Source of the DNA: Candidatus Eiseniibacteriota bacterium
Lineage (GTDB): Bacteria > Eisenbacteria > RBG-16-71-46 > JABDJR01
DNA: 64,000 bases
NCBI GenBank assembly: GCA_963762255.1
Contig: CAVXKA010000001.1
Coordinates: forward strand, 1,440,001 to 1,504,000
Direction of reading: 5' to 3'
The translations under genes and the position numbers were made by a program. Each line of letters begins with the position of its first letter. The first letter of the stretch is position 1. Below, in pieces: positions 759 through 12,587 of the stretch. The notes beneath the pieces are model-generated. The model did not search any database and was not told the origin of the DNA. It worked only from the letters and a program-made list of their open reading frames with translations.

Positions 759-3700
759 GTGAACCGTTCGAACGAATCAGAACGGCGTCCCCGACGCGGT
801 GCCTCCGCGCTTGAGGGAGAGGTCTGGCAGGATCTCCCCGAGGCGGTGAAGTACGGGGACGTTTGTTACCAAGCGGAGCGCTTTGCCGATGCGCTGGAGG
901 CGTACGGCAAGGCTTTGGAGGCCTCCGCCAAGAACCGGGCGAACGCCCTTCCGGCCGAAGTGCGCGCGCGGCTGCACTACCGCATGGCCTCGTGCTACAT
1001 GCGTCGGGCCAGCTACCGCCAGGCACTCGAACAGCTCGATCTCTCCCGACAGGCCCTCCCTCGGCACCTCGACAAGATCCGCCTTGCCAAGATCTACGCG
1101 CGCCGCGGCTACATCCTCATAGAGATGGGGCAGTACGCTCGCGCAGAGCGGCATCTCGTCTGGAGCAAGAAGCTCCTGAGCGGAACCAACGAGCACGAGG
1201 AACTGGCCAACCTGGAAACCCATCTGGGGACGCTCTACGCGCGCGTGGGGCGGTCGGACGAATCGCGGCAGTCGTTCCTCAGCGCGCTGGCCACCTTCCG
1301 CCGCATCGGTGACCGCGAAGGCGAGGCCCGTTCGTTCAACAACCTCGGCCTTCATTACAAGAACGCTTGCGAATGGCGGGAGGCGGTGCGCTACCTCGAG
1401 GAGGCGCGCACGCTCTGGGGACGTCTCGGCCATCGCAAGTACCTGGTGGTCGTTCAACTCAACCTCGGCATCGTCCACTTCAAGCTCGGCAAGTGGGAGC
1501 TATGCGAAGAGAACCTTGCCGCCGGGGAGTCGCTTGCGCGGGAACTCGCCGAGAGCCAGCAGCTCGTGCGCATCCAGCTCGCGCAGGGCAACCTCGCGCT
1601 GCGGCGCTGTCGTTGGGACGAGGCGAAGCTGCTCTACAACCAGGCGCTCGACGTGGCGCGGACCGAGTCGTACGGCCGAGAATCGGTACTGGCTCAGGAG
1701 TTTCTGGGCGAGCTGCACTTCGAGCGAGCGGAATTCGAGGAAGCATCAACGCTTCTCGAAGCTGCCCTTGGGGCGGCGCGGGCGATCGCTCCCGAGGGCG
1801 ACCTGGTGAGCGAAAGTCTGCGTCGCTTGGCGGAGACCCGTCTGGCCCAGGGGCGCTTCCAGGAGGCGCTGGATCACGCCAAGGAATCGGCGGCTCTCGC
1901 CAGCCGCATGGGCGATCGCTACGAAGAAGCGGTGGCGTTGCGGAGCGTGGGCTTGGCCATGATTCGTCTGGGACGCCGCGACGAGGGCGAGCGACTTCTG
2001 CAGATGAGCCTCGATAGCCTGGGTGAGATTGGAGAGTCCTACCAGAAGGGCGCGACCCACTTCGCCTACGGTGTCTTCCTTGCCGAGTCGGCCATGGAAA
2101 CCCGGTCTACCCAGGAATTGGAGCAGGCCGGAGTCCATCTCCAGCGCGCCTACGGGGCATTCCTCGACCTCGATGCCCGTGTGCGAGCGGCCGATGCTGC
2201 GTACCGACGCGCGGCGCTTGAGAGCCACTTTCATCGCTTCGACGAGGCGGCGACCTTCCGCGGCAAGGCGCGGCAGGTCCTTCCCGCCGGCGCGGCCCCC
2301 GCCCTGGAAGAGAAACTGAACCGCCTGGGCTCCGAACTCGAGGACGCATTCGCGGAGCGCTGGCCTTCGGGAGGCGACGTTCTCGCATCGCTCCGCGAGA
2401 TGAAGCGATTGTTCCAGGGGGCGACCGACTCCGAAGCGGTGCTGAAGGAACTCATCCGCCTGGCGGTGACCCGCTCCGGTTCGACCCGAGGCTGCGTGGC
2501 CCATCTGGGCCGGAACGGGCGCGTGGAGGTCGTCGCCACGTTCGGCTGGACCCCGGCCGACGCGAAGGCGCTGATCGGCGCGCTGGGTGGCGCGCTTCGG
2601 GGCGCTCTGGACGACAACCGTCCGGTGTGGACCAACAACGCGGCCGAGGACGAACGATTCCGCCCGGTGGCCGGCGGGACACGTTTCGGGGTGAGCAGCC
2701 TGGTGCTCCTGCCTCTGACCCTCACCGATCAGGAGCCCGGCTTCCTCTACGTGGACAAGACCCCCGAGAATACCGAGGGCGCCTATCACCAGGGAGAGCT
2801 GCACCTTCTCACCATCCTGGCCAACCTCGCCGCGCTCTCGATCATCGAGCGGTGGAACTCGCGGTTGGTGAAGGAGAACGAGGAACTTCGGGCGCGCATC
2901 GCTCTGGGCGAGGGGGAGGATCGGTTCGTCACCGCGCACCCCGGGCTCAAAGAGACCTTGCGACTCGTCACGAAGGTGGCCAACAGCCCCGTTTCGATCC
3001 TCGTCGAAGGGGAGACGGGGACGGGCAAGGGACTGCTGGCTCAGATCATCCACGACGCATCCAACCGCCGCGACAAGCCCTTCGTCCAGATCAACTGCGC
3101 CGCGCTCCCCGAGCAGCTTCTCGAGAGCGAGCTCTTCGGGCACATGAAGGGTTCCTTCACCGGGGCGGCCTACAACAAAATCGGGCTTTTCAAGGAAGCC
3201 GAGAACGGCACCATCTTCCTGGACGAGGTGGACAAGACCACACTCGCCGTTCAGGCCAAGCTCCTTCACGTGATGGACTCGAAGGAAGTGCGGCCGGTCG
3301 GCTCGGTGAAGCCCTACCGAGTGGACACCCGCGTGATCTGCGCGACCAACTCGAACCTGCGGGAGAAGATCCGGGCAGGGGAATTCCTGGAAGACCTCTA
3401 CTACCGTCTCAACGACTTTATCGTCACGGTGCCGCCTCTGCGCGACCGGCGTGAGGATCTCCCCCTGCTTCTGGACTACTTCATAAAGAAGTTTTCCACC
3501 CAGTACGGGCGGCCGGAAATTCGCCTCTCGCCTGAGGTGAGTCGCGTGCTCCTCGATCACCACTGGCCGGGCAACGTGCGCGAGCTCGAGAAGACGATTC
3601 GCCGGCTGGTCGTGCTGGCGGACGAGGAACTTCCGGTTGGACTCGATCTTCTTCCGGTGGAGATTCAAACCGAGAAGTTAAGTTTCTCCGGGCAGACTCT

Positions 3701-3857
3701 GCGGGAAGAAGTTTCGCGCGTCGAACGCCGGGTCATCGCGGAGGGGCTGCGCGCCAACGACTGGAACAAGGCTCAGGTGGCCCGGGTGTTGAAGGTCTCC
3801 TACCCTTGTCTGCTCAAGAAGATCAAGGAGCATCACCTCAGTCCACCGGAGCGCTGA
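759..3857 (+). CDS. Sigma54-dependent enhancer-binding protein with N-terminal TPR array, GAF domain, AAA+ domain and Fis-type HTH
   Basis: About 540 aa of TPR-like helices (e.g. ARSFNNLGLHY, QLNLGIVHFKLGKW), GAF-like region (SSLVLLPL…GFLYVD), Walker A GETGTGKG, ESELFGHMKGSFTGA, Walker B FLDEV, DLYYRLN, WPGNVRELE, C-terminal NKAQVARVLKVS HTH. Confidence 0.93.
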   Translation: MNRSNESERRPRRGASALEGEVWQDLPEAVKYGDVCYQAERFADALEAYGKALEASAKNRANALPAEVRARLHYRMASCYMRRASYRQALEQLDLSRQALPRHLDKIRLAKIYARRGYILIEMGQYARAERHLVWSKKLLSGTNEHEELANLETHLGTLYARVGRSDESRQSFLSALATFRRIGDREGEARSFNNLGLHYKNACEWREAVRYLEEARTLWGRLGHRKYLVVVQLNLGIVHFKLGKWELCEENLAAGESLARELAESQQLVRIQLAQGNLALRRCRWDEAKLLYNQALDVARTESYGRESVLAQEFLGELHFERAEFEEASTLLEAALGAARAIAPEGDLVSESLRRLAETRLAQGRFQEALDHAKESAALASRMGDRYEEAVALRSVGLAMIRLGRRDEGERLLQMSLDSLGEIGESYQKGATHFAYGVFLAESAMETRSTQELEQAGVHLQRAYGAFLDLDARVRAADAAYRRAALESHFHRFDEAATFRGKARQVLPAGAAPALEEKLNRLGSELEDAFAERWPSGGDVLASLREMKRLFQGATDSEAVLKELIRLAVTRSGSTRGCVAHLGRNGRVEVVATFGWTPADAKALIGALGGALRGALDDNRPVWTNNAAEDERFRPVAGGTRFGVSSLVLLPLTLTDQEPGFLYVDKTPENTEGAYHQGELHLLTILANLAALSIIERWNSRLVKENEELRARIALGEGEDRFVTAHPGLKETLRLVTKVANSPVSILVEGETGTGKGLLAQIIHDASNRRDKPFVQINCAALPEQLLESELFGHMKGSFTGAAYNKIGLFKEAENGTIFLDEVDKTTLAVQAKLLHVMDSKEVRPVGSVKPYRVDTRVICATNSNLREKIRAGEFLEDLYYRLNDFIVTVPPLRDRREDLPLLLDYFIKKFSTQYGRPEIRLSPEVSRVLLDHHWPGNVRELEKTIRRLVVLADEELPVGLDLLPVEIQTEKLSFSGQTLREEVSRVERRVIAEGLRANDWNKAQVARVLKVSYPCLLKKIKEHHLSPPER

Positions 3858-4077: not shown

Positions 4078-4094
4078 TTGGCACGGCCTCTGCA
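4078..4094 (+). promoter_or_regulatory. Sigma54 (-24/-12) promoter for the AAA ATPase transcript
   Basis: TTGGCACGGCCTCTGCA versus consensus YTGGCACGRNNNTTGCW (one mismatch); IHF-like TAA-N19-TTA at 4026-4050. Confidence 0.75.
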
Positions 4095-4253
4095 TATATG
4101 AGCCTGCGGAGGGGGGACCTCCGGAGCCGAAAGCCGTCGGGTTCCAAGCGCAACACGCATCGCAGCTCAGTTGTCCCTGCCGGACTTGGAACCCGATGGG
4201 TCGGCCCTCGTCTTCCGCGACCGAGGCGTTCACCAAGAAAGCGGGGGGGGATC

Positions 4254-5720
4254 GTGAGGCGCGAACGGACCGAAGCCTATCGCGATCAGTTCGAATACCT
4301 CGCGGACTGCTTCGACTTCATTCGCAAGCGTGGGGACGCCTACACCATCCGCACCGAGGCGCTGGAGAGCGAGCGGATGTCCCAGTACGGAGAGCGGAGC
4401 GGCTTCGACCTTGAGCGTAGCCGCCTCCTCAGCATCTACCACGGGATCGAGACCGAGGTGGCGCGCAAGGAAGAGGAAATCCACCGACGCCGGCAGGAGA
4501 CCGACGCGCTGGGGATCCACTTTCCCCTCGATACCTTTATCGAACGGTACAGGCTGCGTCCCGAAGAGACGCAGATTCTCCTGGTTCTCCTTCACAACGA
4601 GTCAGTCGGTCGAAGCCATGCGCGCTTCAGCTCCGGGAACGAGATCCTGAATCTCCTGTTTCCCAATCCGGTGAGCGCGTTGAAGGCTTCCTCGTTTCTC
4701 GATGTGGGGGCGACGCTCCTCGAGGAGGGGCTCATCAGGTCATTCTCCGATGACGAGGCCACCAACTTCTTAAGGGCTGCCTACGAAGTCACGGAGAAGA
4801 CCCTGCACGAGGTGTTGGGAGTCCGCGATCGCAGCGCGATCAGGGACCAGCAGCATGCTCCCCGCACTTCCAGCAGTCCTCTCGAGAGCCCTTTCCGGGT
4901 CGTCGCCCCCCGTGTTCGCCTCGAGCAGGTCGTGCTCCCCGAAGCGGTCCGCCAAGGCATCGAAGAAGTCCTGTGGCAGGCCGAGCAGGGGCAGGAGCTG
5001 TTTCGTGAGTGGGGTCTGGACGAGGTCGTGGAGAAGGGGCGCGGGACCATTGTGTTGTTCAGCGGCCTTCCCGGCACCGGCAAGACGATGACCGCCGAGG
5101 CGATCGCCGAGCGCCTCGGCCGTCCCCTCTACGTCGCCGACTACGCCCAGCTCGAGAGCAAGTGGATCGGCGAGACCGAGAAGAACATCGTGGCCGTGTT
5201 CCAGGCCGCGAGCCAGGCCGGGGCGGTTCTCCTCTTGGACGAGGCGGACGCCGTCCTCGCCGCTCGCCTTGACGGAGGCCACTACAACGATCGCGCGTAC
5301 AACCGCCAGGTGAGCATCCTGCTCGGCGAGATGGAGGCATTTCCCGGCACATGCATCCTCACCACCAATCGGGTGGTGACTCTGGACGAAGGATTGGCGC
5401 GGCGCATCGCGGCTAGCTTTGAGTTCACGATCCCGGAGGCGGGGGAGCGGTCGCGCATCTGGAAGGCGCTGCTCCCGGCCAGGGTGCCTCTGGCAGACGA
5501 TGTGGATCTGGATCAGTTGGCCCGACGGTTTCCAATGGCCGGCGGGCACATCAAGAATGCCGTCCTCACGGCGGTCCGCAAGGCGGGCCGGCGTGCGGGC
5601 CGGGGAGCGCGTGTAACGCAGCGGGATTTCATCGAGGCGGCGGCGGCCGAGCAAGACAGCTTCCGCCCGTGTTCCCGACCCATCGGGTTTCAGGAGGCTT
5701 CCTCCGCTTCCTACTCGTGA
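4254..5720 (+). CDS. AAA+ ATPase (SpoVK/Vps4-like, resembling Afp15/Pvc15-type ATPases) with a winged-helix-like N-terminal region
   Basis: VVLP…EWG…GRGTIVLFSGLPGTGKTMTAEAIA, SKWIGETEKN, LLLDEAD, LTTNR, LARRI. GTG 4254 after a G-rich RBS is preferred because ATG 4098 lies upstream of the predicted TSS. Confidence 0.9.
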   Translation: MRRERTEAYRDQFEYLADCFDFIRKRGDAYTIRTEALESERMSQYGERSGFDLERSRLLSIYHGIETEVARKEEEIHRRRQETDALGIHFPLDTFIERYRLRPEETQILLVLLHNESVGRSHARFSSGNEILNLLFPNPVSALKASSFLDVGATLLEEGLIRSFSDDEATNFLRAAYEVTEKTLHEVLGVRDRSAIRDQQHAPRTSSSPLESPFRVVAPRVRLEQVVLPEAVRQGIEEVLWQAEQGQELFREWGLDEVVEKGRGTIVLFSGLPGTGKTMTAEAIAERLGRPLYVADYAQLESKWIGETEKNIVAVFQAASQAGAVLLLDEADAVLAARLDGGHYNDRAYNRQVSILLGEMEAFPGTCILTTNRVVTLDEGLARRIAASFEFTIPEAGERSRIWKALLPARVPLADDVDLDQLARRFPMAGGHIKNAVLTAVRKAGRRAGRGARVTQRDFIEAAAAEQDSFRPCSRPIGFQEASSASYS

Positions 5721-6100
5721 GGTCTCGCTGCGTGACACCGCCGACGGCTCTTGGGCGGCGACAGGAAGCGGTGCCGGTGGACGCCGGCGCCGCCGGGACT
5801 TGCCGGATCGAGTGTCCGTGGTTCGGCAAGGCGTCGCGATACGGTGGGTTAGACCGAGATGGTTATCCCGTCGCAAGCGAGGTGCAAGAGAGAGGGGAGT
5901 GGGAGCACTAACGAGCGCAGGCTCCCGTTCCCAGCCATCCCTCCCGTCCATGACGGGCGGGGTTTCCGGTCAGGCGAGATGGACGCTTGCCGGAAAGTTG
6001 GAACCGTGAGGGTTCCGTTCGGGCATAGGCACTCGGCGCGCAGACCACACATGGGGATGTCCAGGCTCGTGCCGAAGTGAAAACCGAATGCTCGGACCTG
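5721..6100 (+). ncRNA. Candidate structured non-coding RNA / 3' element (at least 8 consecutive hairpins)
   Basis: Stems 5768-5793, 5799-5830, 5842-5873, 5895-5932, 5943-5957, 5963-5996, 6000-6016 and 6017-6097; mismatches are mostly G-U on the + strand; no convincing ORF. Confidence 0.55.
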
Positions 6101-6137
6101 CGCGACGTCGGAGGACACTCCGGCGTCGCGTTTTTTT
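6101..6137 (+). terminator. Rho-independent terminator
   Basis: cgcgacgtcggag/ctccggcgtcgcg 13-bp stem (one G-U) followed by T7. Confidence 0.88.
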
Positions 6138-6231
6138 GTGCCGCGCGGTCGCGGGCGCTGGGCTCGACCGGTTCAGGGCGTTGCCCGCCGAGCGCTTGAC
6201 CTGCTCGCCCCCGCCCGTCGATAGTGGATGC

Positions 6232-7077
6232 ATGACGGTTTCATCCGACGAACCCGCGCACCGCGCATTCCCCGGCTTTGGCCAGGCGATGCTCCTCGTC
6301 GTCTTCATCTGGCTGGCTATCCTCTTCGTCGCAGTCGCCGCCACGGTTGCGCAGTCACTGCGGGCGGGCCAAGTGGAGATGCCCTCCGAGGCGACCCTCC
6401 TTCTTGTCGCCAATACCGCGGGGTTCTTCCTGATCACCGGCCTCGGCTGGCGGTACACCGGAGCGAGGTTCGGCGAGGTGTTTCCCCTGCGCCGGTTCGA
6501 TCCTCGGCTCCTGGCCCCTGTGTTCCTGTTCACCCTGGGAAGTGTGGCCGTCCTGTCGCAGGTCGATTCCGTGCTCCGACTGCTCCCTGCCCCTGACTGG
6601 TGGAACGCGCTCCTGCGCACGATCGATGAGACCATGTTAGACCTGATCCGCGAGTCGTACTGGGCCGCCGCGATCGCCCTGGTGGTGATGGCGCCGGTCA
6701 CCGAAGAACTCTTCTTCCGAGGGCTGGTGCTCCGCGGATTCCGCCTGCGCTATTCCAGGAAGAAGGCGATCGTCCTCTCCGCGCTTCTTTTCGCCATCAC
6801 CCACCTCACCCCGAACCAGTTTCTCTCCGCGTTCGCGATCGGGCTCTTCCTCGCCTGGATCGTGCTCGAGACTGGAAGCCTCTGGCTCGCGCTCTTCGTT
6901 CACGCGGTGGCGAATGGATCCGGCGTGCTCGCGGCGGGCGCGGGGATGATGGTGCCGTCCGGCGCGGAGCAGCCGGAACTCCTGCCGTGGTGGACCACGC
7001 TGGCGGGTCTCGCGGCCCTCGCCGGCGGGTGGCGGTGGCTGCGTCATCTGCTCCCGTCGCGCTCCCCCGCGATGTAG
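6232..7077 (+). CDS. CPBP (Abi/CAAX type II) intramembrane metalloprotease
   Basis: APVTEELFFRG, FAITH and HAVAN motifs; multiple TM helices; TTGACC-18-GATAGT promoter ending 6 nt before ATG 6232. Confidence 0.9.
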   Translation: MTVSSDEPAHRAFPGFGQAMLLVVFIWLAILFVAVAATVAQSLRAGQVEMPSEATLLLVANTAGFFLITGLGWRYTGARFGEVFPLRRFDPRLLAPVFLFTLGSVAVLSQVDSVLRLLPAPDWWNALLRTIDETMLDLIRESYWAAAIALVVMAPVTEELFFRGLVLRGFRLRYSRKKAIVLSALLFAITHLTPNQFLSAFAIGLFLAWIVLETGSLWLALFVHAVANGSGVLAAGAGMMVPSGAEQPELLPWWTTLAGLAALAGGWRWLRHLLPSRSPAM

Positions 7078-7208: not shown

Positions 7209-7225
7209 TTGGCACCCTGCTTGCG
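7209..7225 (+). promoter_or_regulatory. Sigma54 (-24/-12) promoter
   Basis: TTGGCACCCTGCTTGCG; IHF-like element at 7158-7181, 28 bp upstream. Confidence 0.8.
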
Positions 7226-7237
7226 TTATGGGGGGGC

Positions 7238-8101
7238 ATGAGAGACGCAAGCAAGCTTTCAAGATGGGTTCGCATTCGCCGGGCGGGGTTGACGGTGTTG
7301 CTCGCCGGACTCCTCGGCGGGTTCGTCGGCGGTTGCGATGAGGACTGTCTCCTCTGCTCGGACTGCGGTTCGCCCAACGCGCCGGTCGACGTCTACTCGG
7401 TGACCGGCGACGAGGAGATCGCGCTCTACTGGACCCCGGTCAACCTGGAGGCCGTGGACGAGTTCGTGGTCTACCGCTCCGCCAACGCGGAAGGCCCTTA
7501 TGTGGAGATCGATCACACCCGGCGCGACATGTTCGTCGACCGCGACGTGCGCAACGGGCGTACCTACTTCTACGCGGTGACCGCGATCGACGCGTGCGGC
7601 TACGAGTCGGATCTCTCTCGCGAGCTGGTCCACGATACGCCCCGCCCGGAGGGATTCGGGGCGCGCCTCGACGACGCCAACGGCGACGCGTACGCGCGCA
7701 GCGGCTGGGACTTCAGCGCCTATCGCGCGCTCGTGTGGGATCACGACGAGACCGATGTCTACTTCGTGATTTCCGAGGGCGTGCCGTTCCTGGTCGCGGC
7801 CGACCTGGCCACCGATATCCAGGACGCGGGCTACACCGACTTCGACGGCGTGGACTGGGCGCCCGAGCGCGGGTGGAGCCCCTCCGGCTCCGTCGAGCTC
7901 ATTCCCGGGCACATGATCGTGGTGTGGACGCGGGACAACCACTTCGCGAAGGTGCGGGTGGAGTCGGTCGGCGCAGGAAGGCTCACCTTCGACTGGGCGT
8001 ACCAGATCGACACCGGCAACCGCGAGCTGGCGCCGCGGCCGGGCAACGGGCTCCGAATTCAGGCGGCTCCGGGGCTGCGCCCGGCGCCGCGGGCGCTTTG
8101 A
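7238..8101 (+). CDS. Lipoprotein with fibronectin type III-like domain
   Basis: Lipobox-like VGGC; P-x-x-V-Y-S-V-T-G-D…LYW…YRS…YFYAVTAID…ES FN3 pattern. Confidence 0.75.
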   Translation: MRDASKLSRWVRIRRAGLTVLLAGLLGGFVGGCDEDCLLCSDCGSPNAPVDVYSVTGDEEIALYWTPVNLEAVDEFVVYRSANAEGPYVEIDHTRRDMFVDRDVRNGRTYFYAVTAIDACGYESDLSRELVHDTPRPEGFGARLDDANGDAYARSGWDFSAYRALVWDHDETDVYFVISEGVPFLVAADLATDIQDAGYTDFDGVDWAPERGWSPSGSVELIPGHMIVVWTRDNHFAKVRVESVGAGRLTFDWAYQIDTGNRELAPRPGNGLRIQAAPGLRPAPRAL

Positions 8102-8151
8102 CGATGAAGAACGGTCCAACGACGTGGCTTTCCACGAGGAGGTATGACGAG

Positions 8152-8784
8152 ATGAGAAGCGAATCGATCCGAAAGGCGACGGTCCTTCTGGTCGCGCTGG
8201 CGGGCATCGCGGTCGTCTCGACCGCGGCAGCCGACTCGCGCGGCGTGAATCGAGTGGAGCCGAAGCTGGTGCGCATGCCGGAGCCCACGTTGGTCCGGGT
8301 GCCGATCGAGGATGTGAATGACCTCCGTGTACGTGTCTGGACGGAGCCGGGAGAGGGGACGATGGTGTTCCCCGGCGAGAGCGTGAAGGTCCGGTTCCGC
8401 GTGGATGACGATGCCTACGTGGTCATCTATGACATCGACACCATGGGACGCGTGCGGGTTCTCTTTCCCGAGGATCCCTATGACGACGGATTCGTGCGTG
8501 GCGGACAGGTGGTGCGTCTGCCGGGTCGCGGCGCCGGGTATCGACTCATGGTGAGCGGCCCCGCCGGTGTCGAGCGCATCGTGGCCCTGGCCTCGGACAG
8601 GCCGCTGACAGGTCGGTGGCAGCGGTTCGCCGACAACGACCTGTTCCGGCAGGACAGTTCCTTGAGCCCACGGTTGGTGAAGGCGCCGACGAGGCCGAAC
8701 CTCATCCCCGTTCCCGTCGATCGCGACGGGGTGGCGAGGGACGAGACCTGGTTCAGGGTGGGCCGGTCCGGCCGGAGCTACTGA
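8152..8784 (+). CDS. Secreted DUF4384-like domain protein
   Basis: RBS GAGGAGG, signal peptide, PGESVKVRFRVDDDAYVVIYDIDTMGRVRVLFP…GPAGVERIVALAS. Confidence 0.75.
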   Translation: MRSESIRKATVLLVALAGIAVVSTAAADSRGVNRVEPKLVRMPEPTLVRVPIEDVNDLRVRVWTEPGEGTMVFPGESVKVRFRVDDDAYVVIYDIDTMGRVRVLFPEDPYDDGFVRGGQVVRLPGRGAGYRLMVSGPAGVERIVALASDRPLTGRWQRFADNDLFRQDSSLSPRLVKAPTRPNLIPVPVDRDGVARDETWFRVGRSGRSY

Positions 8785-8925: not shown

Positions 8926-9077
8926 GGAACCGAACGTCGGCCCGGGGGGTCTACCCAAAGCCTCCCGGGCCGCTTTGCGTCGAAGCCTGCATGCGGTACG
9001 GTATTCAGTCCCCCGGCCGCATGCCGTGTGCCGGGTGCTTGATCCATGTGCGCCCTGCGCCGGGCCGAACCACCCTG

Positions 9078-12000
9078 ATGAACATCTCGCCGATCTCCCG
9101 CCAGGCTCTTGCCATGCTGGTCCTTGCCGGCGTCCTTGCCTCCGGCGCAGGCCCGCTCACCATCGTCGCCTCCGCGGCGGCATCCATTCCGTCGGCCCTC
9201 TCCGCAGACGTGCCCCGGCCCTGCTTCGTCCCGGCCCATCCCCTCAAGCAGGGGATCGCCCCGCGACCGGAAGCTCCCAGCTCCCCGCGGGCGGGCGAGA
9301 TCGCGCTCAAGGTGGGGGGCGCCTTCGAGCCCTATCACGACGCGCACTTGCGCGAGGGGATTGCGTCGGGTGCGGAGGACGTCACGCCGAGGCGCTGGCG
9401 CATCGCCGCGATTCTGGTCGACTTTGAGGAACAGGAGATGGGCGCTGGATTCGCCGCCGCCCGCGAGGACTCCATCCGGCTCTACTTCGATCGCGCGCTC
9501 ACGCACCTCGACCAGATGTACCGGTCGATGTCGGATGGGCTTCAAGAACTCACCTGGGATATCACGCCGTCGGTCTATCGCATGCCGCGATCCCTGGCCT
9601 ACTACGGCCTTGACGATTCGATCGCCACGCGCGAGGCCGACCTCTGCCGCGATGCGGTCCAAGCCGCCGACGCCGACGTGGATTTCGGCGACTACGATGT
9701 CTACATGGTCTTCCATGCCGGCCCGGGGCAAGAGGCCGACATCTTGAACGATTCGCAGGACCAGATCTGGTCGGTCTTCTTCCGCCAGGTCGACTTCGGG
9801 TTCTGGCTGAACGCACCGGACGCGGAGCGCGGCATCCGGACCGCGGATCTCACCGCGACCGGGGACACTGTCTTCGTGACCCACACCGTGGTGCTTCCGG
9901 AGACCGAAAGCCAGGATGGATACGAGTTCGGGCTGCTCGGCGTGGTCGCCCACGAGTTCGGCCATCGCTTCGGGCTTCCCGACCTCTACGACACGACCGG
10001 CCCCGCGGACTTCATCTACGCCGACAGCCAGGGGATCGGCACCTTCGGGCTCATGGGAGCGGGGATCTGGAACGACAACGGCTTCTTCCCCGCCGAGATG
10101 GAGGCGTGGAGCAAGTTCTACGTGGGGTGGTTGCGCCCGCGGGTAATTCGCCCCGAGGCCGGCGGGGGCGAGCAGATCGTCTCCCTGGAGGCGGCCGAGC
10201 TCGCGCGCCGGGAGGGCGCGGTGCGGATACCGATGGGAGGGGACGAGTACCTGCTCATCGAGAACCGCGTGCGCGATTACAACTACAACGGCATCGTCGA
10301 TTTCACGGACGCGGACGACGACTCCGTATTCGACTTCTGGACCGACGGATACGGAGCCACCGCCGACGGCGGCGACACCGAATTCGACTGGTATCTGCCG
10401 CAGCCGCTGGACCGACCCCGTAACCCGAAGAAGGACGGTTCCGGACTTCTGATCTGGCATGTCGACGAATCCACGATCAGCGACTTGCTCCTCTACAACA
10501 TGGTGAACGCGGACGCGCTTCACAAGGGCGTGGACCTCGAAGAGGCCGACGGCATCCAGGATCTGGACAAGCTCGTGTTCCAGTTCGAGGCGTTCGGCGA
10601 TTCGCGCGATTCCTACTGGGCCGGCAACGCTACCGAACTGACCCCCGCGAGCACACCGCCATCCGATGCCTACAGCGACGCTCGGACCGGGATCTGGATC
10701 ACCGACATCTCGGAGGCGGGGCGCACCATGAGCTTCCGCCTCCGCTTCACCTCGCCCGACGGGAACGCCGAAGGTGACTTCATCGACGGATGGCCGCGCG
10801 ATCTTCCCGGGCTCGTGCGTGACTTCCAGCCGGTGGCCGGCGATCTGAACGGCGACGGCCGGCTGGAGATCGTGTTGGCCGCCACGGACGAAGACGGCAT
10901 CGGAGGGCCGATCGTCCTCGACGCCGACGGGACGTCCTTCCTGCCCGCGGGGGACACGCCCCGTTACTTCAGTACCGGGCGGCTGCACGCCGAGCCGATC
11001 CTCGTGAACATGGACGGCCCCGAAGGGGAATCGGGCCTGGAGATGGTGTGGGTGAGCGGCGACACCGTGTACGCTGCGCGTGGCGACGGCACCTACCTGA
11101 CTGCGAGTGGTGGGGCGAGCCCCGGCCCGGCGCCGTTCTTCGTTCTGAACATGGAGCCCGGTCGCACGCATCTCGTGGCGGACGACATCGACGGTTTCGA
11201 CGGTCGCCCCGAATTGCTCCTGGGCATCCCGTCGCCGCTGCGCCTGAACGCCAACGACCTGATCGCAATCGCCTACAGACCCGGTCAAGGCACGCGCCTG
11301 CGCGTGCAGGCGACCCTGTTCGGCGAGGCCGATCTTCACTCCACCCTCGCCGATCTCGACACCGTGGACGCCGGCTTGAAGGAGACCATCACGAGCGTGC
11401 GGACACCGGACGGCGGGTGGCTGAGCGTGACGCTCCTTGGCGAGGAACTCGACGAGAGCGGGATGTATCCGGTCTGTTCGCTCAAGTACTCGCAGGGTGA
11501 CACGGTCGCGTTCACCGAACCGGTGACCGGCGATCTCAACGGCGACGGCCTCGACGAGATCGTCGTGGGGGACTCGCGAGGCTTCGTGCATGCGCTGACC
11601 GTTCGCTCCGTCACCATCGACGGCATCAGCAAGCTCTGCGAAGCGCGCAGCGCGGCGGGGACCACGGAGAACGACAACGACCTGTTCACCGAGCTGCCGG
11701 GGTGGCCGATCGAAATCGGGACGCTCGCCGACGATGAGTTGTCGCTGGCCGATTTCGACGGCGACGGCCACCTCGAGGTCTTGGCGTTCGGCCCGATCAA
11801 CCGTCTCTACGCGATCAACTACAACGGAACCTTCGACATGTCCTATCCGGTCCAACTGCCCGGAGAGGATCGGTTCACCGCGTCGTTCCTGTCTCCGTTG
11901 TTCTTCGATCTCCCGGGGCTGGTGCGGTCGGAGGGGTTCTTCGCGCTTCCCCTCCCGGACGGGCAGGTCCGTCTGCACGAATCCGGCGAGAGTCCCTATC

Positions 12001-12587
12001 GTGACGTGAGCTACCTTGGAGGCGGCACCCAACGGAGCTATCCGGTGCTTGCGGCCTTCGACCCGCAAGAGGGCCGTGGTCTCCTCACCGTCGAGGACGT
12101 GAACGTCAGTTTCCCGCCCATGATCGCGAGCGGCGATACGTCGCCGGGGATCACAAAGGTTGGACGGGCGATTCTGCGCTCGGTGGGTTCAGGCCCGTTC
12201 GCGCCCGGCGGCTGGCCGGTCTACCGCCATGATGCGGCCCGCACCGGCCGCGCTCTCGAACCGTCGAGCCCCGGACAGGAGCCCGCGAACGGGCTGCTCG
12301 CGGACACGTTTGTCATGCCCAACCCGGCCGCGAGCACCCAGCCCGGCTTCCACTACCGGGTGAGCTCGGACGTGAGGAGCGTGACCATCGAGGTGCACGA
12401 TCTCAACGGAAGGCTGGTGCGCACGATCGACGGCTCGGTGGACCTGCACACCGACAACATCGTGCGCTGGGATCTGCGCAACGATCACGGGCACGAGGTG
12501 GCCCCCGGGCTCTACGTGGCCAGGCTCAAGGCGGAGACGAGCTCGAAAGCGGGAAGCCGGGTCGTGACCTTTGTGGTGCTGCGATGA
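9078..12587 (+). CDS. Secreted M6 (immune inhibitor A-like) metalloprotease with FG-GAP repeats and FlgD/T9SS-type C-terminal domain
   Basis: FHAGPGQE, AHEFGHRFGLPDLYD, LLIENR, GLLIWHVDE, GDLNGDG repeats, MPNPA…WDLRNDHGHEVAPGLYVARL…VVLR. Confidence 0.88.
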   Translation: MNISPISRQALAMLVLAGVLASGAGPLTIVASAAASIPSALSADVPRPCFVPAHPLKQGIAPRPEAPSSPRAGEIALKVGGAFEPYHDAHLREGIASGAEDVTPRRWRIAAILVDFEEQEMGAGFAAAREDSIRLYFDRALTHLDQMYRSMSDGLQELTWDITPSVYRMPRSLAYYGLDDSIATREADLCRDAVQAADADVDFGDYDVYMVFHAGPGQEADILNDSQDQIWSVFFRQVDFGFWLNAPDAERGIRTADLTATGDTVFVTHTVVLPETESQDGYEFGLLGVVAHEFGHRFGLPDLYDTTGPADFIYADSQGIGTFGLMGAGIWNDNGFFPAEMEAWSKFYVGWLRPRVIRPEAGGGEQIVSLEAAELARREGAVRIPMGGDEYLLIENRVRDYNYNGIVDFTDADDDSVFDFWTDGYGATADGGDTEFDWYLPQPLDRPRNPKKDGSGLLIWHVDESTISDLLLYNMVNADALHKGVDLEEADGIQDLDKLVFQFEAFGDSRDSYWAGNATELTPASTPPSDAYSDARTGIWITDISEAGRTMSFRLRFTSPDGNAEGDFIDGWPRDLPGLVRDFQPVAGDLNGDGRLEIVLAATDEDGIGGPIVLDADGTSFLPAGDTPRYFSTGRLHAEPILVNMDGPEGESGLEMVWVSGDTVYAARGDGTYLTASGGASPGPAPFFVLNMEPGRTHLVADDIDGFDGRPELLLGIPSPLRLNANDLIAIAYRPGQGTRLRVQATLFGEADLHSTLADLDTVDAGLKETITSVRTPDGGWLSVTLLGEELDESGMYPVCSLKYSQGDTVAFTEPVTGDLNGDGLDEIVVGDSRGFVHALTVRSVTIDGISKLCEARSAAGTTENDNDLFTELPGWPIEIGTLADDELSLADFDGDGHLEVLAFGPINRLYAINYNGTFDMSYPVQLPGEDRFTASFLSPLFFDLPGLVRSEGFFALPLPDGQVRLHESGESPYRDVSYLGGGTQRSYPVLAAFDPQEGRGLLTVEDVNVSFPPMIASGDTSPGITKVGRAILRSVGSGPFAPGGWPVYRHDAARTGRALEPSSPGQEPANGLLADTFVMPNPAASTQPGFHYRVSSDVRSVTIEVHDLNGRLVRTIDGSVDLHTDNIVRWDLRNDHGHEVAPGLYVARLKAETSSKAGSRVVTFVVLR

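Follow-up and report, generated by a model that had tools for sequence, protein, structure and literature searches.

What kind of element occupies the densely folded stretch of about 400 nucleotides (nt) that lies between the stop codon of an AAA+ ATPase gene and a transcription terminator in a genome of Candidatus Eisenbacteria? The window considered here, that is, the whole stretch of DNA that was analysed, is a 64,000-nt piece (64 kb) of contig CAVXKA010000001.1; the genome it belongs to, 93.6% complete, is referred to as G000 (other G numbers denote other genomes), and the region in question spans positions 5721-6137 of the + strand. An initial annotation of the bare letters had proposed that it harbors an undescribed non-coding RNA (ncRNA) co-transcribed with the ATPase. 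The analyses reported below revealed that the folded stretch downstream of the ATPase gene is a real, conserved RNA. Moreover, it is on balance probable that region 5721-6137 lies untranslated at the 3' end of a transcript made from a sigma-54 promoter, and that it forms the tail of a regulatory RNA whose family occurs across Candidatus Eisenbacteria. The elements of the region are the following:

5721..6016 (+): family-specific array of seven hairpins in the 3' untranslated region (3'UTR), from the minimum free energy (MFE) fold, with compensatory changes in G001 and G003-G007

5768-5793, 5799-5830, 5831-5883, 5892-5936, 5937-5961, 5963-5996, 6000-6016 (+): the single hairpins of the array, from the MFE fold

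6017..6097 (+): core hairpin of the RNA family, with variable outer helices P1 and P2 and an invariant apex (33 homologues folded; P2 covaries)

6041..6067 (+): invariant apex, CAGACC-ACAC-AUGGGGAUGUCCAGGCU (exact pattern and covariance model R1)

6100..6138 (+): intrinsic terminator, a 14-base-pair (bp) stem (6100-6131) followed by seven T (kept with compensatory changes, helix 16 of the alignment)

The MFE of the region is -218.7 kcal/mol, whereas 100 dinucleotide shuffles gave -185.0 ± 5.5 kcal/mol and none of them equalled the native value (z-score -6.13); the reverse strand has a z-score of -3.79. This bears out the RNA-level structure on the + strand that had been claimed. Eleven 417-nt windows of the ATPase open reading frame (ORF; G+C 64.6% vs 65.5%) ranged from -159 to -198 kcal/mol, with a mean of -182 kcal/mol, and the upstream part of the region alone (5760-6016) has a z-score of -4.41, with none of 200 shuffles equal to it. 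All the stems that had been recognized by inspection between 5768 and 6097 recurred at the same positions in the MFE fold (the one at 5943-5957 inside the hairpin 5937-5961), including the 6000-6016 hairpin with its GUGAG loop and the helix 6017-6026/6088-6097 around 6030-6040/6068-6079; G-U pairs account for 20 of the 144 MFE pairs. The terminator stem (6100-6131) and its T-run were also found, so that the folded stretch does sit between the ATPase stop codon and the terminator. The region is single-copy in its own genome, where the sole other match is a 33-nt piece at 88% identity.

As for the RNA being undescribed, no family of Rfam 15 reached its gathering score, either in the window or in eight homologous loci, in agreement with the initial annotation; the best matches of a permissive search were both below threshold (ncS01, 26.6 vs 58 bits; RsmW, 18.9 vs 52 bits). 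A literature search retrieved no paper on small RNAs (sRNAs) or regulatory RNAs of Eisenbacteria.

Probing 41 genomes (40 relatives and G000 itself) with the 417 nt by BLAST retrieved matches in ten of them. The syntenic ones fall in the window's own family (f1): G001 matches over the full length at 75% identity, G004-G007 over the last 225-260 nt at 70-71% identity, and G003 in pieces. The other matches are 30-50-nt pieces of one G+C-rich stem, and the seven-hairpin array had no BLAST match outside f1. The window and six relatives of the same family were then aligned (few sequences, two of which, G005 and G007, are nearly identical), and RNAalifold returned 109 pairs. Across the seven sequences, 89.9% of the cells were paired, compared with 81.9% for shuffled partners and 41-51% for slid partners; furthermore, 42 of the 109 pairs showed compensatory changes, against 21.6 ± 2.9 for shuffled partners (0 of 500 trials reached 42) and 8-15 for slid ones. 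The structure first read from a single sequence is, hence, conserved with covariation in its homologues. The first ~300 nt of the region, which include the seven hairpins (5768-6016), represent an addition made by the window's own family.

Could the region encode a small protein instead, or simply be the chance fold of a G+C-rich spacer? Many ORFs of 66-89 amino acids (aa) overlap it on both strands. However, no reading frame is open throughout the seven homologues, similarity extends to all six frames, and the majority of gaps would shift the frame, their length not being divisible by three (39 of the 61 gap runs in the alignment are 1 or 2 nt long), so that no conserved small ORF explains the region, an alternative that the initial annotation had left for checking. 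The length of the G-run in the apex also differs between genomes (four, five or six G). A chance fold, in turn, is at odds with the z-score of -6.13 and with the conservation of the region across the phylum; in our opinion, the probability of a small protein or a chance fold is next to nil.

Conservation across the phylum concerns the core hairpin. Its apex consensus, CAGACC-N4-AUGGGGAUGUCCAGGCU, is nearly invariant across Candidatus Eisenbacteria, and the form that it takes in the family (CAGACC, a bulge of 4-10 nt, then (A)UGGGGGAUGUCCAGGCU) hardly varies. The exact apex pattern was found in 20 out of 206 genomes of the phylum, in one copy each, with no match of the reversed control; covariance model R1 (57 positions) has matches in 34 out of 151 genomes, G081 included, although no conclusion depends on G081 by itself. 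A pattern scan with one genome per species gave 18 loci: seven behind an ATPase gene, eight without the ATPase, and three unrelated, the latter belonging to other phyla and looking like coding sequence. In 8/8 of the ATPase-free loci, an orthologue (42-52% identity) of the enhancer-binding protein (bEBP) encoded upstream of the ATPase in the window lies on the same strand and ends ~400 nt upstream. Similarly, all 15 extra model matches inspected (down to E ~0.003, leaving out weak matches in G105, G117, G039 and G176 and second matches in G003 and G064, E 0.0025-0.009) have a bEBP orthologue on the same strand, 400-800 nt upstream. The sister family (G008 and G009) has only ~100 nt of this RNA in the 3'UTR behind the ATPase orthologue, i.e., one long hairpin with the apex CAGACC-N-AUGGGGGAUGUCCAGGCU, and in at least 23 loci of other families the same core hairpin is free-standing, without the ORF. 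Judging from these comparisons of sequence, the last 80 nt of the region are the hallmark of a phylum-wide RNA family.

MAFFT takes no account of structure, and RNAalifold performed poorly on its alignments of the widely flanked core; the core was therefore studied through per-sequence folds and a model-based alignment. In the 33 homologues, the apex tops a hairpin of 30-40 bp whose outer helices are unrelated in sequence; flank-only shuffles gave a median z-score of -3.0, with 22 homologues below -2. The covariation score of the model-based alignment was 0.182, against 0.093 ± 0.014 for shuffled and 0.05-0.10 for slid partners, and all five pairs of P2 showed double changes. What varies in the apex helix is its 5' strand (AGGCC, AUGCC, UGACC, CGACC, AGACU), GGGGAUGUCCAGGCU being constant.

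These data bear on a first alternative, according to which the 3'UTR is purely cis-acting, with hairpins that stabilize the ATPase mRNA or insulate the downstream gene and have no function in trans. The region does lie between the stop codon and the terminator, the extra seven hairpins are present only in a family with the ORF, and a dense hairpin array would block 3'-5' exonuclease decay. Nevertheless, a core hairpin with an identical apex stands without any ORF in the free-standing loci (at least 23) just mentioned, and a stabilizer requires structure, not 15-16 invariant nucleotides; we consider this explanation unlikely.

If the region is the tail of a transcript, where does that transcript begin? 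The initial annotation had found the locus loosely reminiscent of protein-plus-RNA operons controlled by sigma-54 and RtcR. The upstream elements are the following:

759..3857 (+): gene coding for a TPR-GAF-sigma54-activator-HTH_8 bEBP (Pfam Sigma54_activat 6.4e-64, TPR_12, GAF_2, AAA_lid_14, HTH_8)

4079..4094 (+): sigma-54 (-24/-12) promoter, TGGCAC-N5-CTGCA (pattern scan of the 64-kb window and conservation)

4108..4122 (+): 5'-terminal hairpin H1, GGAGG-GGGGA-CCUCC, i.e., GGAGGGGGGACCUCC (fold and conservation; one exact copy in the genome)

4126..4205 (+): long-range helix of the leader, GCCGUCGGGUUCCAAG / CUUGGAACCCGAUGG (MFE fold of the leader; sequence kept in six family members)

4254..5720 (+): AAA+ ATPase ORF, GTG start, 488 codons (Pfam AAA 1.4e-24, WHD PF22977 7.2e-13)

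The sigma-54 part of the comparison stood, a sigma-54 promoter and a bEBP gene being indeed located upstream, and the RtcR part did not. The bEBP (1032 aa, with TPR, GAF, sigma-54-interaction and HTH_8 domains) scored 291.8 bits with the RtcR model NF038308, whose cut-off is 650, and only over the AAA and helix-turn-helix (HTH) part; no RtcB or RtcA domain was found in the five proteins scanned at the locus. With its TPR and GAF sensor and its sub-cut-off score, the activator is not of the RtcR type, and the RtcR comparison is no more than an analogy.

The pattern TGGCAC-N5-YTGC has two matches in the 64 kb (4079 and 7210), both at this locus, against 0.21 expected, and the genome encodes rpoN (DNA-binding domain, 4.3e-64). 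H1 begins 29 nt after the start of the promoter, corresponding to about +2 to +4 of the transcript. Promoter and H1 are present in 9/9 loci of the ATPase type, with the promoter at a constant offset. Among the 23 free-standing loci, H1 was found in 20 and both promoter and H1 were found by pattern in 18, 16 of which have an offset of 28-30 nt; where the pattern placed a promoter, the model match follows it at a distance of 135-434 nt, and the core hairpin at about 115-435 nt. In the eight ATPase-free loci of the pattern scan, the promoter is 150-185 nt upstream of the apex and is followed by the GGAGGGGGGACCUCC hairpin, with one locus variant. From the promoter distance, the core hairpin and the terminator, the free-standing RNA should be ~0.2-0.5 kb long. 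A self-complementary pair equivalent to the leader helix was also seen by eye after H1 in free-standing loci, and the helix at 4126..4205 is taken to be homologous to it. Sequence comparison thus shows three hallmarks of the RNA family: a -24/-12 promoter directly behind the gene for a TPR-GAF bEBP, the hairpin GGAGGGGGGACCUCC right at the 5' end, and a long 3' hairpin with the nearly invariant apex. In most orders, these three make up a free-standing RNA.

Some further observations concern the activator. An ORF of 125 aa without Pfam match (314-691, +) lies directly 5' of its gene and is probably co-transcribed with it; relatives of this ORF, with repeated GDPD-x-Y words, precede the bEBP gene in G004, G006 and G007 and, more weakly, in G012, and other families also show small ORFs of this sort. 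When all contigs of G000 were searched by tblastn, the sigma-54-interaction domain had at least 22 additional matches (33-50% identity), which point to a large bEBP repertoire.

Another possibility is that the motif works as DNA, as an enhancer (upstream activating sequence, UAS) or another protein-binding site through which the bEBP would act on the sigma-54 promoter further downstream. An imperfect dyad (CAG(A)CC ... GGCUG) is indeed present in the motif, which, in some loci, lies 200-400 bp 5' of the sigma-54 promoter of a downstream lipoprotein gene. However, the distance from one half of the dyad to the other differs by 6 nt among loci, covariation is seen in the helices on either side, and 28 of the 33 core homologues fold more stably as the + strand. 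In several lineages, moreover, a U-run directly adjoins the 3' side of the core hairpin, and for this reason the hairpin is read there as the terminator itself. In the window, 1.15 kb and an intervening gene separate the motif from the second promoter, and the sequences upstream of the two sigma-54 promoters share no word of 8 nt or more. We regard a DNA-level element as highly unlikely.

How, then, did an ATPase ORF come to lie within an RNA of this family? The protein is a classical AAA+ ATPase with an N-terminal winged-helix variant, whose closest solved relatives are the D2 domains of Cdc48/p97; among 40 relatives searched, full-length orthologues were found only in the nine of the same order. 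The unit is a free-standing, non-coding RNA in other orders; in the window, a 488-codon ORF lies inside it, and its 3' part is non-coding. Since the ORF is located between the promoter (4079) and 5' hairpin (4108) on one side and the core on the other, both halves of the RNA would be carried by the ATPase mRNA as untranslated regions (UTRs), the 5' module as its 150-nt leader (4105-4253) and the 3' module at 6017-6097. Apart from the sigma-54 site (4079) and a sigma-70-like site past the terminator (6196), no promoter-like element, internal or other, was found; we infer that the ATPase and the 3' RNA are co-transcribed.

A tree of the C-terminal 311 aa of the bEBP from 31 loci (G005 and G081 left out; four paralogues of the own genome as outgroup) placed the nine ATPase-type loci in one clade (100/99), sister (85/83) to a free-standing clade, and other free-standing lineages branch below these two. 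Given this position and the lack of ATPase orthologues outside the order among the 40 relatives searched, we read the ORF as inserted into the RNA, and it is likely that the ORF-bearing state is the derived one. The word tgccgga..ttggaacc, which had been reported to occur twice, is found at 4178-4193 in the leader and at 5988-6005; in the form CCGGA..GGAACC, it is kept in both leader and 3'UTR in most family members and may be the trace of a duplication at insertion.

What could such an RNA do? We propose that both sigma-54 promoters (4079 and 7210) are activated by this bEBP, and that the first would give a transcript spanning ~4105 to the terminator (6131-6138). The invariant apex, together with the similar G-rich loop of the 5' hairpin, would be the effector site, docking a conserved partner in trans; the effector could act within the mRNA or after the release of a 3'UTR fragment. 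A conserved docking partner is suggested by the 15-16 nt that remain identical while the adjacent activator falls to ~50% identity, and by the apex 3' strand being kept even where its 5' pairing partner changes. A protein or a ribonucleoprotein is the foremost candidate for this partner, with not quite an even chance; an RNA target is somewhat less probable, and something else would be a minor possibility.

One protein considered is CsrA, as in a CsrA/Rsm-type sponge whose GGA loops (GGGGA in the 5' hairpin, AGAUGGA in the 5980s, GGAUGU in the apex) titrate it. The consensus obtained for CsrA by systematic evolution of ligands by exponential enrichment (SELEX) is RUACARGGAUGU, and the apex loop resembles it. 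Moreover, Rfam RsmW matches weakly at 5749-5880 (18.9 bits, E 2.9), and CsrA is present in 103 of the 121 genomes of the phylum searched, including families with the free-standing RNA. That score, however, is far under the 52-bit gathering score. The apex is also unchanged in G000, in the six other f1 genomes searched (6/6) and in G009, where CsrA (PF02599) was not found, whereas CsrA-positive G084 is the one genome with the apex loop GGGCAAAUGU, without GGA. A CsrA sponge has been dropped because csrA was not found in the window's family, and we judge it very unlikely. The genomes of that family searched for CsrA were G000 and G002-G007.

An RNA partner close at hand would be the mRNA of the activator itself, as Qrr sRNAs feed back on luxO; in this case, the G-rich loops would bind a C-run at the start of the bEBP mRNA. 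Some genomes do have near-perfect complements of the 5' hairpin (GGAGGUCCCCCC-like) at the bEBP start or close to it: G012 and G015 are in the top 5% of their own locus, G065 and G068 have their locus minima (-31.7 and -33.9 kcal/mol) just outside the -70..+30 interval, and G006 and G062 are weaker. Within that interval, however, the top 5% was reached in only 2/15 genomes for the 5' hairpin and 1/15 for the apex; G000, G004, G003, G007, G008, G009, G061, G063 and G020 are not above background, and both one-mismatch complements of H1 in G000 lie inside coding regions. Feedback pairing, quite unlikely on the whole, is unsupported in G000. In G065, G068, G012 and G015, the H1 complement at or near the activator start could form a hairpin with a C-loop kissing the G-loop. 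The gene call of G000 is crude (2651 ORFs, start sites unreliable).

Going back to the proposed sigma-54-dependent RNA with an effector site in trans, several results weigh against it. The structure tested for covariation within the family came from the same seven-sequence alignment, the innermost apex helix (UGG/CCA) lacks covariation and is broken in three genomes of one genus, and the leader alone folds no better than shuffles (z-score -1.15). The base of the bEBP tree is a polytomy and the outgroup branches are long. As for partners, neither CsrA, in the genomes listed above, nor Hfq, in G000, was found; against 16S or 23S ribosomal RNA (rRNA), the apex and the 5' hairpin reached best pairing energies no different from the average of 60 shuffled probes. 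The reverse complement of the apex, searched genome-wide with up to three mismatches, had 288 matches, none perfect, vs 125 for the reversed control; these are taken as codon noise, since the word reads Leu-Asp-Ile codons. Lastly, the contigs from RNA libraries are assembled and possibly derived from DNA, and for this reason the hint of expression that they give is weak. Metatranscriptome contigs cover 245 nt on 5811-6055 (run X4, 13 differences) and 85 nt on 6011-6089 (run X13), other RNA-library contigs fall on the ORF, and a 1590-nt contig of a relative (run X2) spans promoter, leader and ORF; the runs match only small shares of the stretch, and neither the uncovered parts nor the habitats of the runs carry weight.

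A more far-reaching scenario, which we hold to be rather improbable, is that an ancient, phylum-wide sigma-54 riboregulator captured a protein gene between its 5' and 3' modules, both being kept as UTRs under purifying selection, and that one family then grew the 400-nt multi-hairpin domain. The invariant G-rich loops would serve as docking sites for a conserved cellular machine, neither CsrA nor Hfq but, e.g., the transcription apparatus or the activator, and the mRNA would be message and regulator at once.

Is an arrangement of this kind known elsewhere? In Myxococcus xanthus (Pxr and PxrR, or Nla19) and Vibrio (Qrr1 and LuxO), a bEBP gene adjoins the gene of a sigma-54-dependent sRNA; Pxr and Qrr are RNAs of ~100 nt, and Qrr needs Hfq and has known mRNA targets. 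The Eisenbacteria RNA resembles Pxr and Qrr1 in being adjacent to a bEBP gene, of sigma-54 type and endowed with a highly conserved stretch, but it is 0.2-0.5 kb long when free-standing, or ~2 kb as mRNA, and shows no homology to them. CpxQ, SroC and MicL are 3'UTR-derived sRNAs that arose within an mRNA. A conserved structured element between the stop codon and the mRNA's own terminator is shared with them; in contrast, the RNA modules described here are free-standing in related lineages, and the ORF was apparently placed between them. With CrcZ of Pseudomonas, an sRNA dependent on CbrB and RpoN, the locus shares the position of the gene immediately behind a bEBP gene (cbrB), the sigma-54 promoter, and a multi-hairpin RNA of a few hundred nt with repeated motifs. 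Unlike the A-rich motifs of CrcZ, bound by Hfq/Crc, those of Eisenbacteria are G-rich, and Hfq was not found in G000; furthermore, there is no sequence or Rfam similarity, and the ORF within the unit is not the activator. According to one study, CrcZ can also be a 3'UTR processed out of a longer mRNA (PMC5113210). In Desulfovibrio vulgaris, one study lists sigma-54-dependent ncRNA genes adjoining EBP genes (e.g., downstream of DVU0653 and DVU0679) as part of the EBP regulon (PMC4641369); these belong to another phylum, no sequence relation is apparent, and none is described there with an ORF inside. Hence, a sigma-54 regulatory RNA adjacent to a bEBP gene is of a known kind, and what sets the window's RNA apart is that it has an ORF within it, that its invariant loops are rich in G, and that neither Hfq nor CsrA was found in G000.

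The downstream neighborhood includes the following elements:

6196-7077 (+): CPBP/Rce1-like intramembrane protease gene, with a sigma-70-like promoter, TTGACC-18-GATAGT

7210..7225 (+): second sigma-54 promoter, TGGCAC-N5-TTGCG, 5' of the lipoprotein gene (pattern scan)

7238..8101 (+): gene for a conserved lipoprotein, whose lipobox precedes a Cys/Asp-rich CDEDC motif, with orthologues downstream of the core across the phylum

An orthologue of the lipoprotein gene lies directly downstream of the core in 23/25 loci; among 23 loci other than that of the window, 10 have a sigma-54-like site in front of this orthologue. One orthologue has a weak fn3 match, and in other families a UPF0164 outer-membrane-like gene comes next after the lipoprotein gene. 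In the genera to which G000, G001 and G004-G007 belong, the protease gene separates the RNA from the lipoprotein gene; G003 has a weaker match ~1.4 kb further downstream. In the window, the lipoprotein gene is followed by a gene for a DUF4384 protein (8104-8784, +) and then by one for a 1198-aa protein with M6-peptidase, FG-GAP and FlgD-Ig domains (8991-12587, +).

To our knowledge, Candidatus Eisenbacteria has no cultured representative. For this phylum, the locus establishes an RNA family whose regulatory setting is clear, consisting of one bEBP and two sigma-54 promoters; the motif is conserved far beyond the neighboring proteins (15-16 identical nt vs ~50% for the activator), which points to a conserved molecular partner. 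The covariance model and the defining features can be used to annotate the family in metagenomes. The ATPase-bearing form, finally, appears to be a naturally occurring sRNA gene with a coding gene inside it, and the locus offers a testable model for the possible origin of dual-function RNAs and of regulators located in 3'UTRs.

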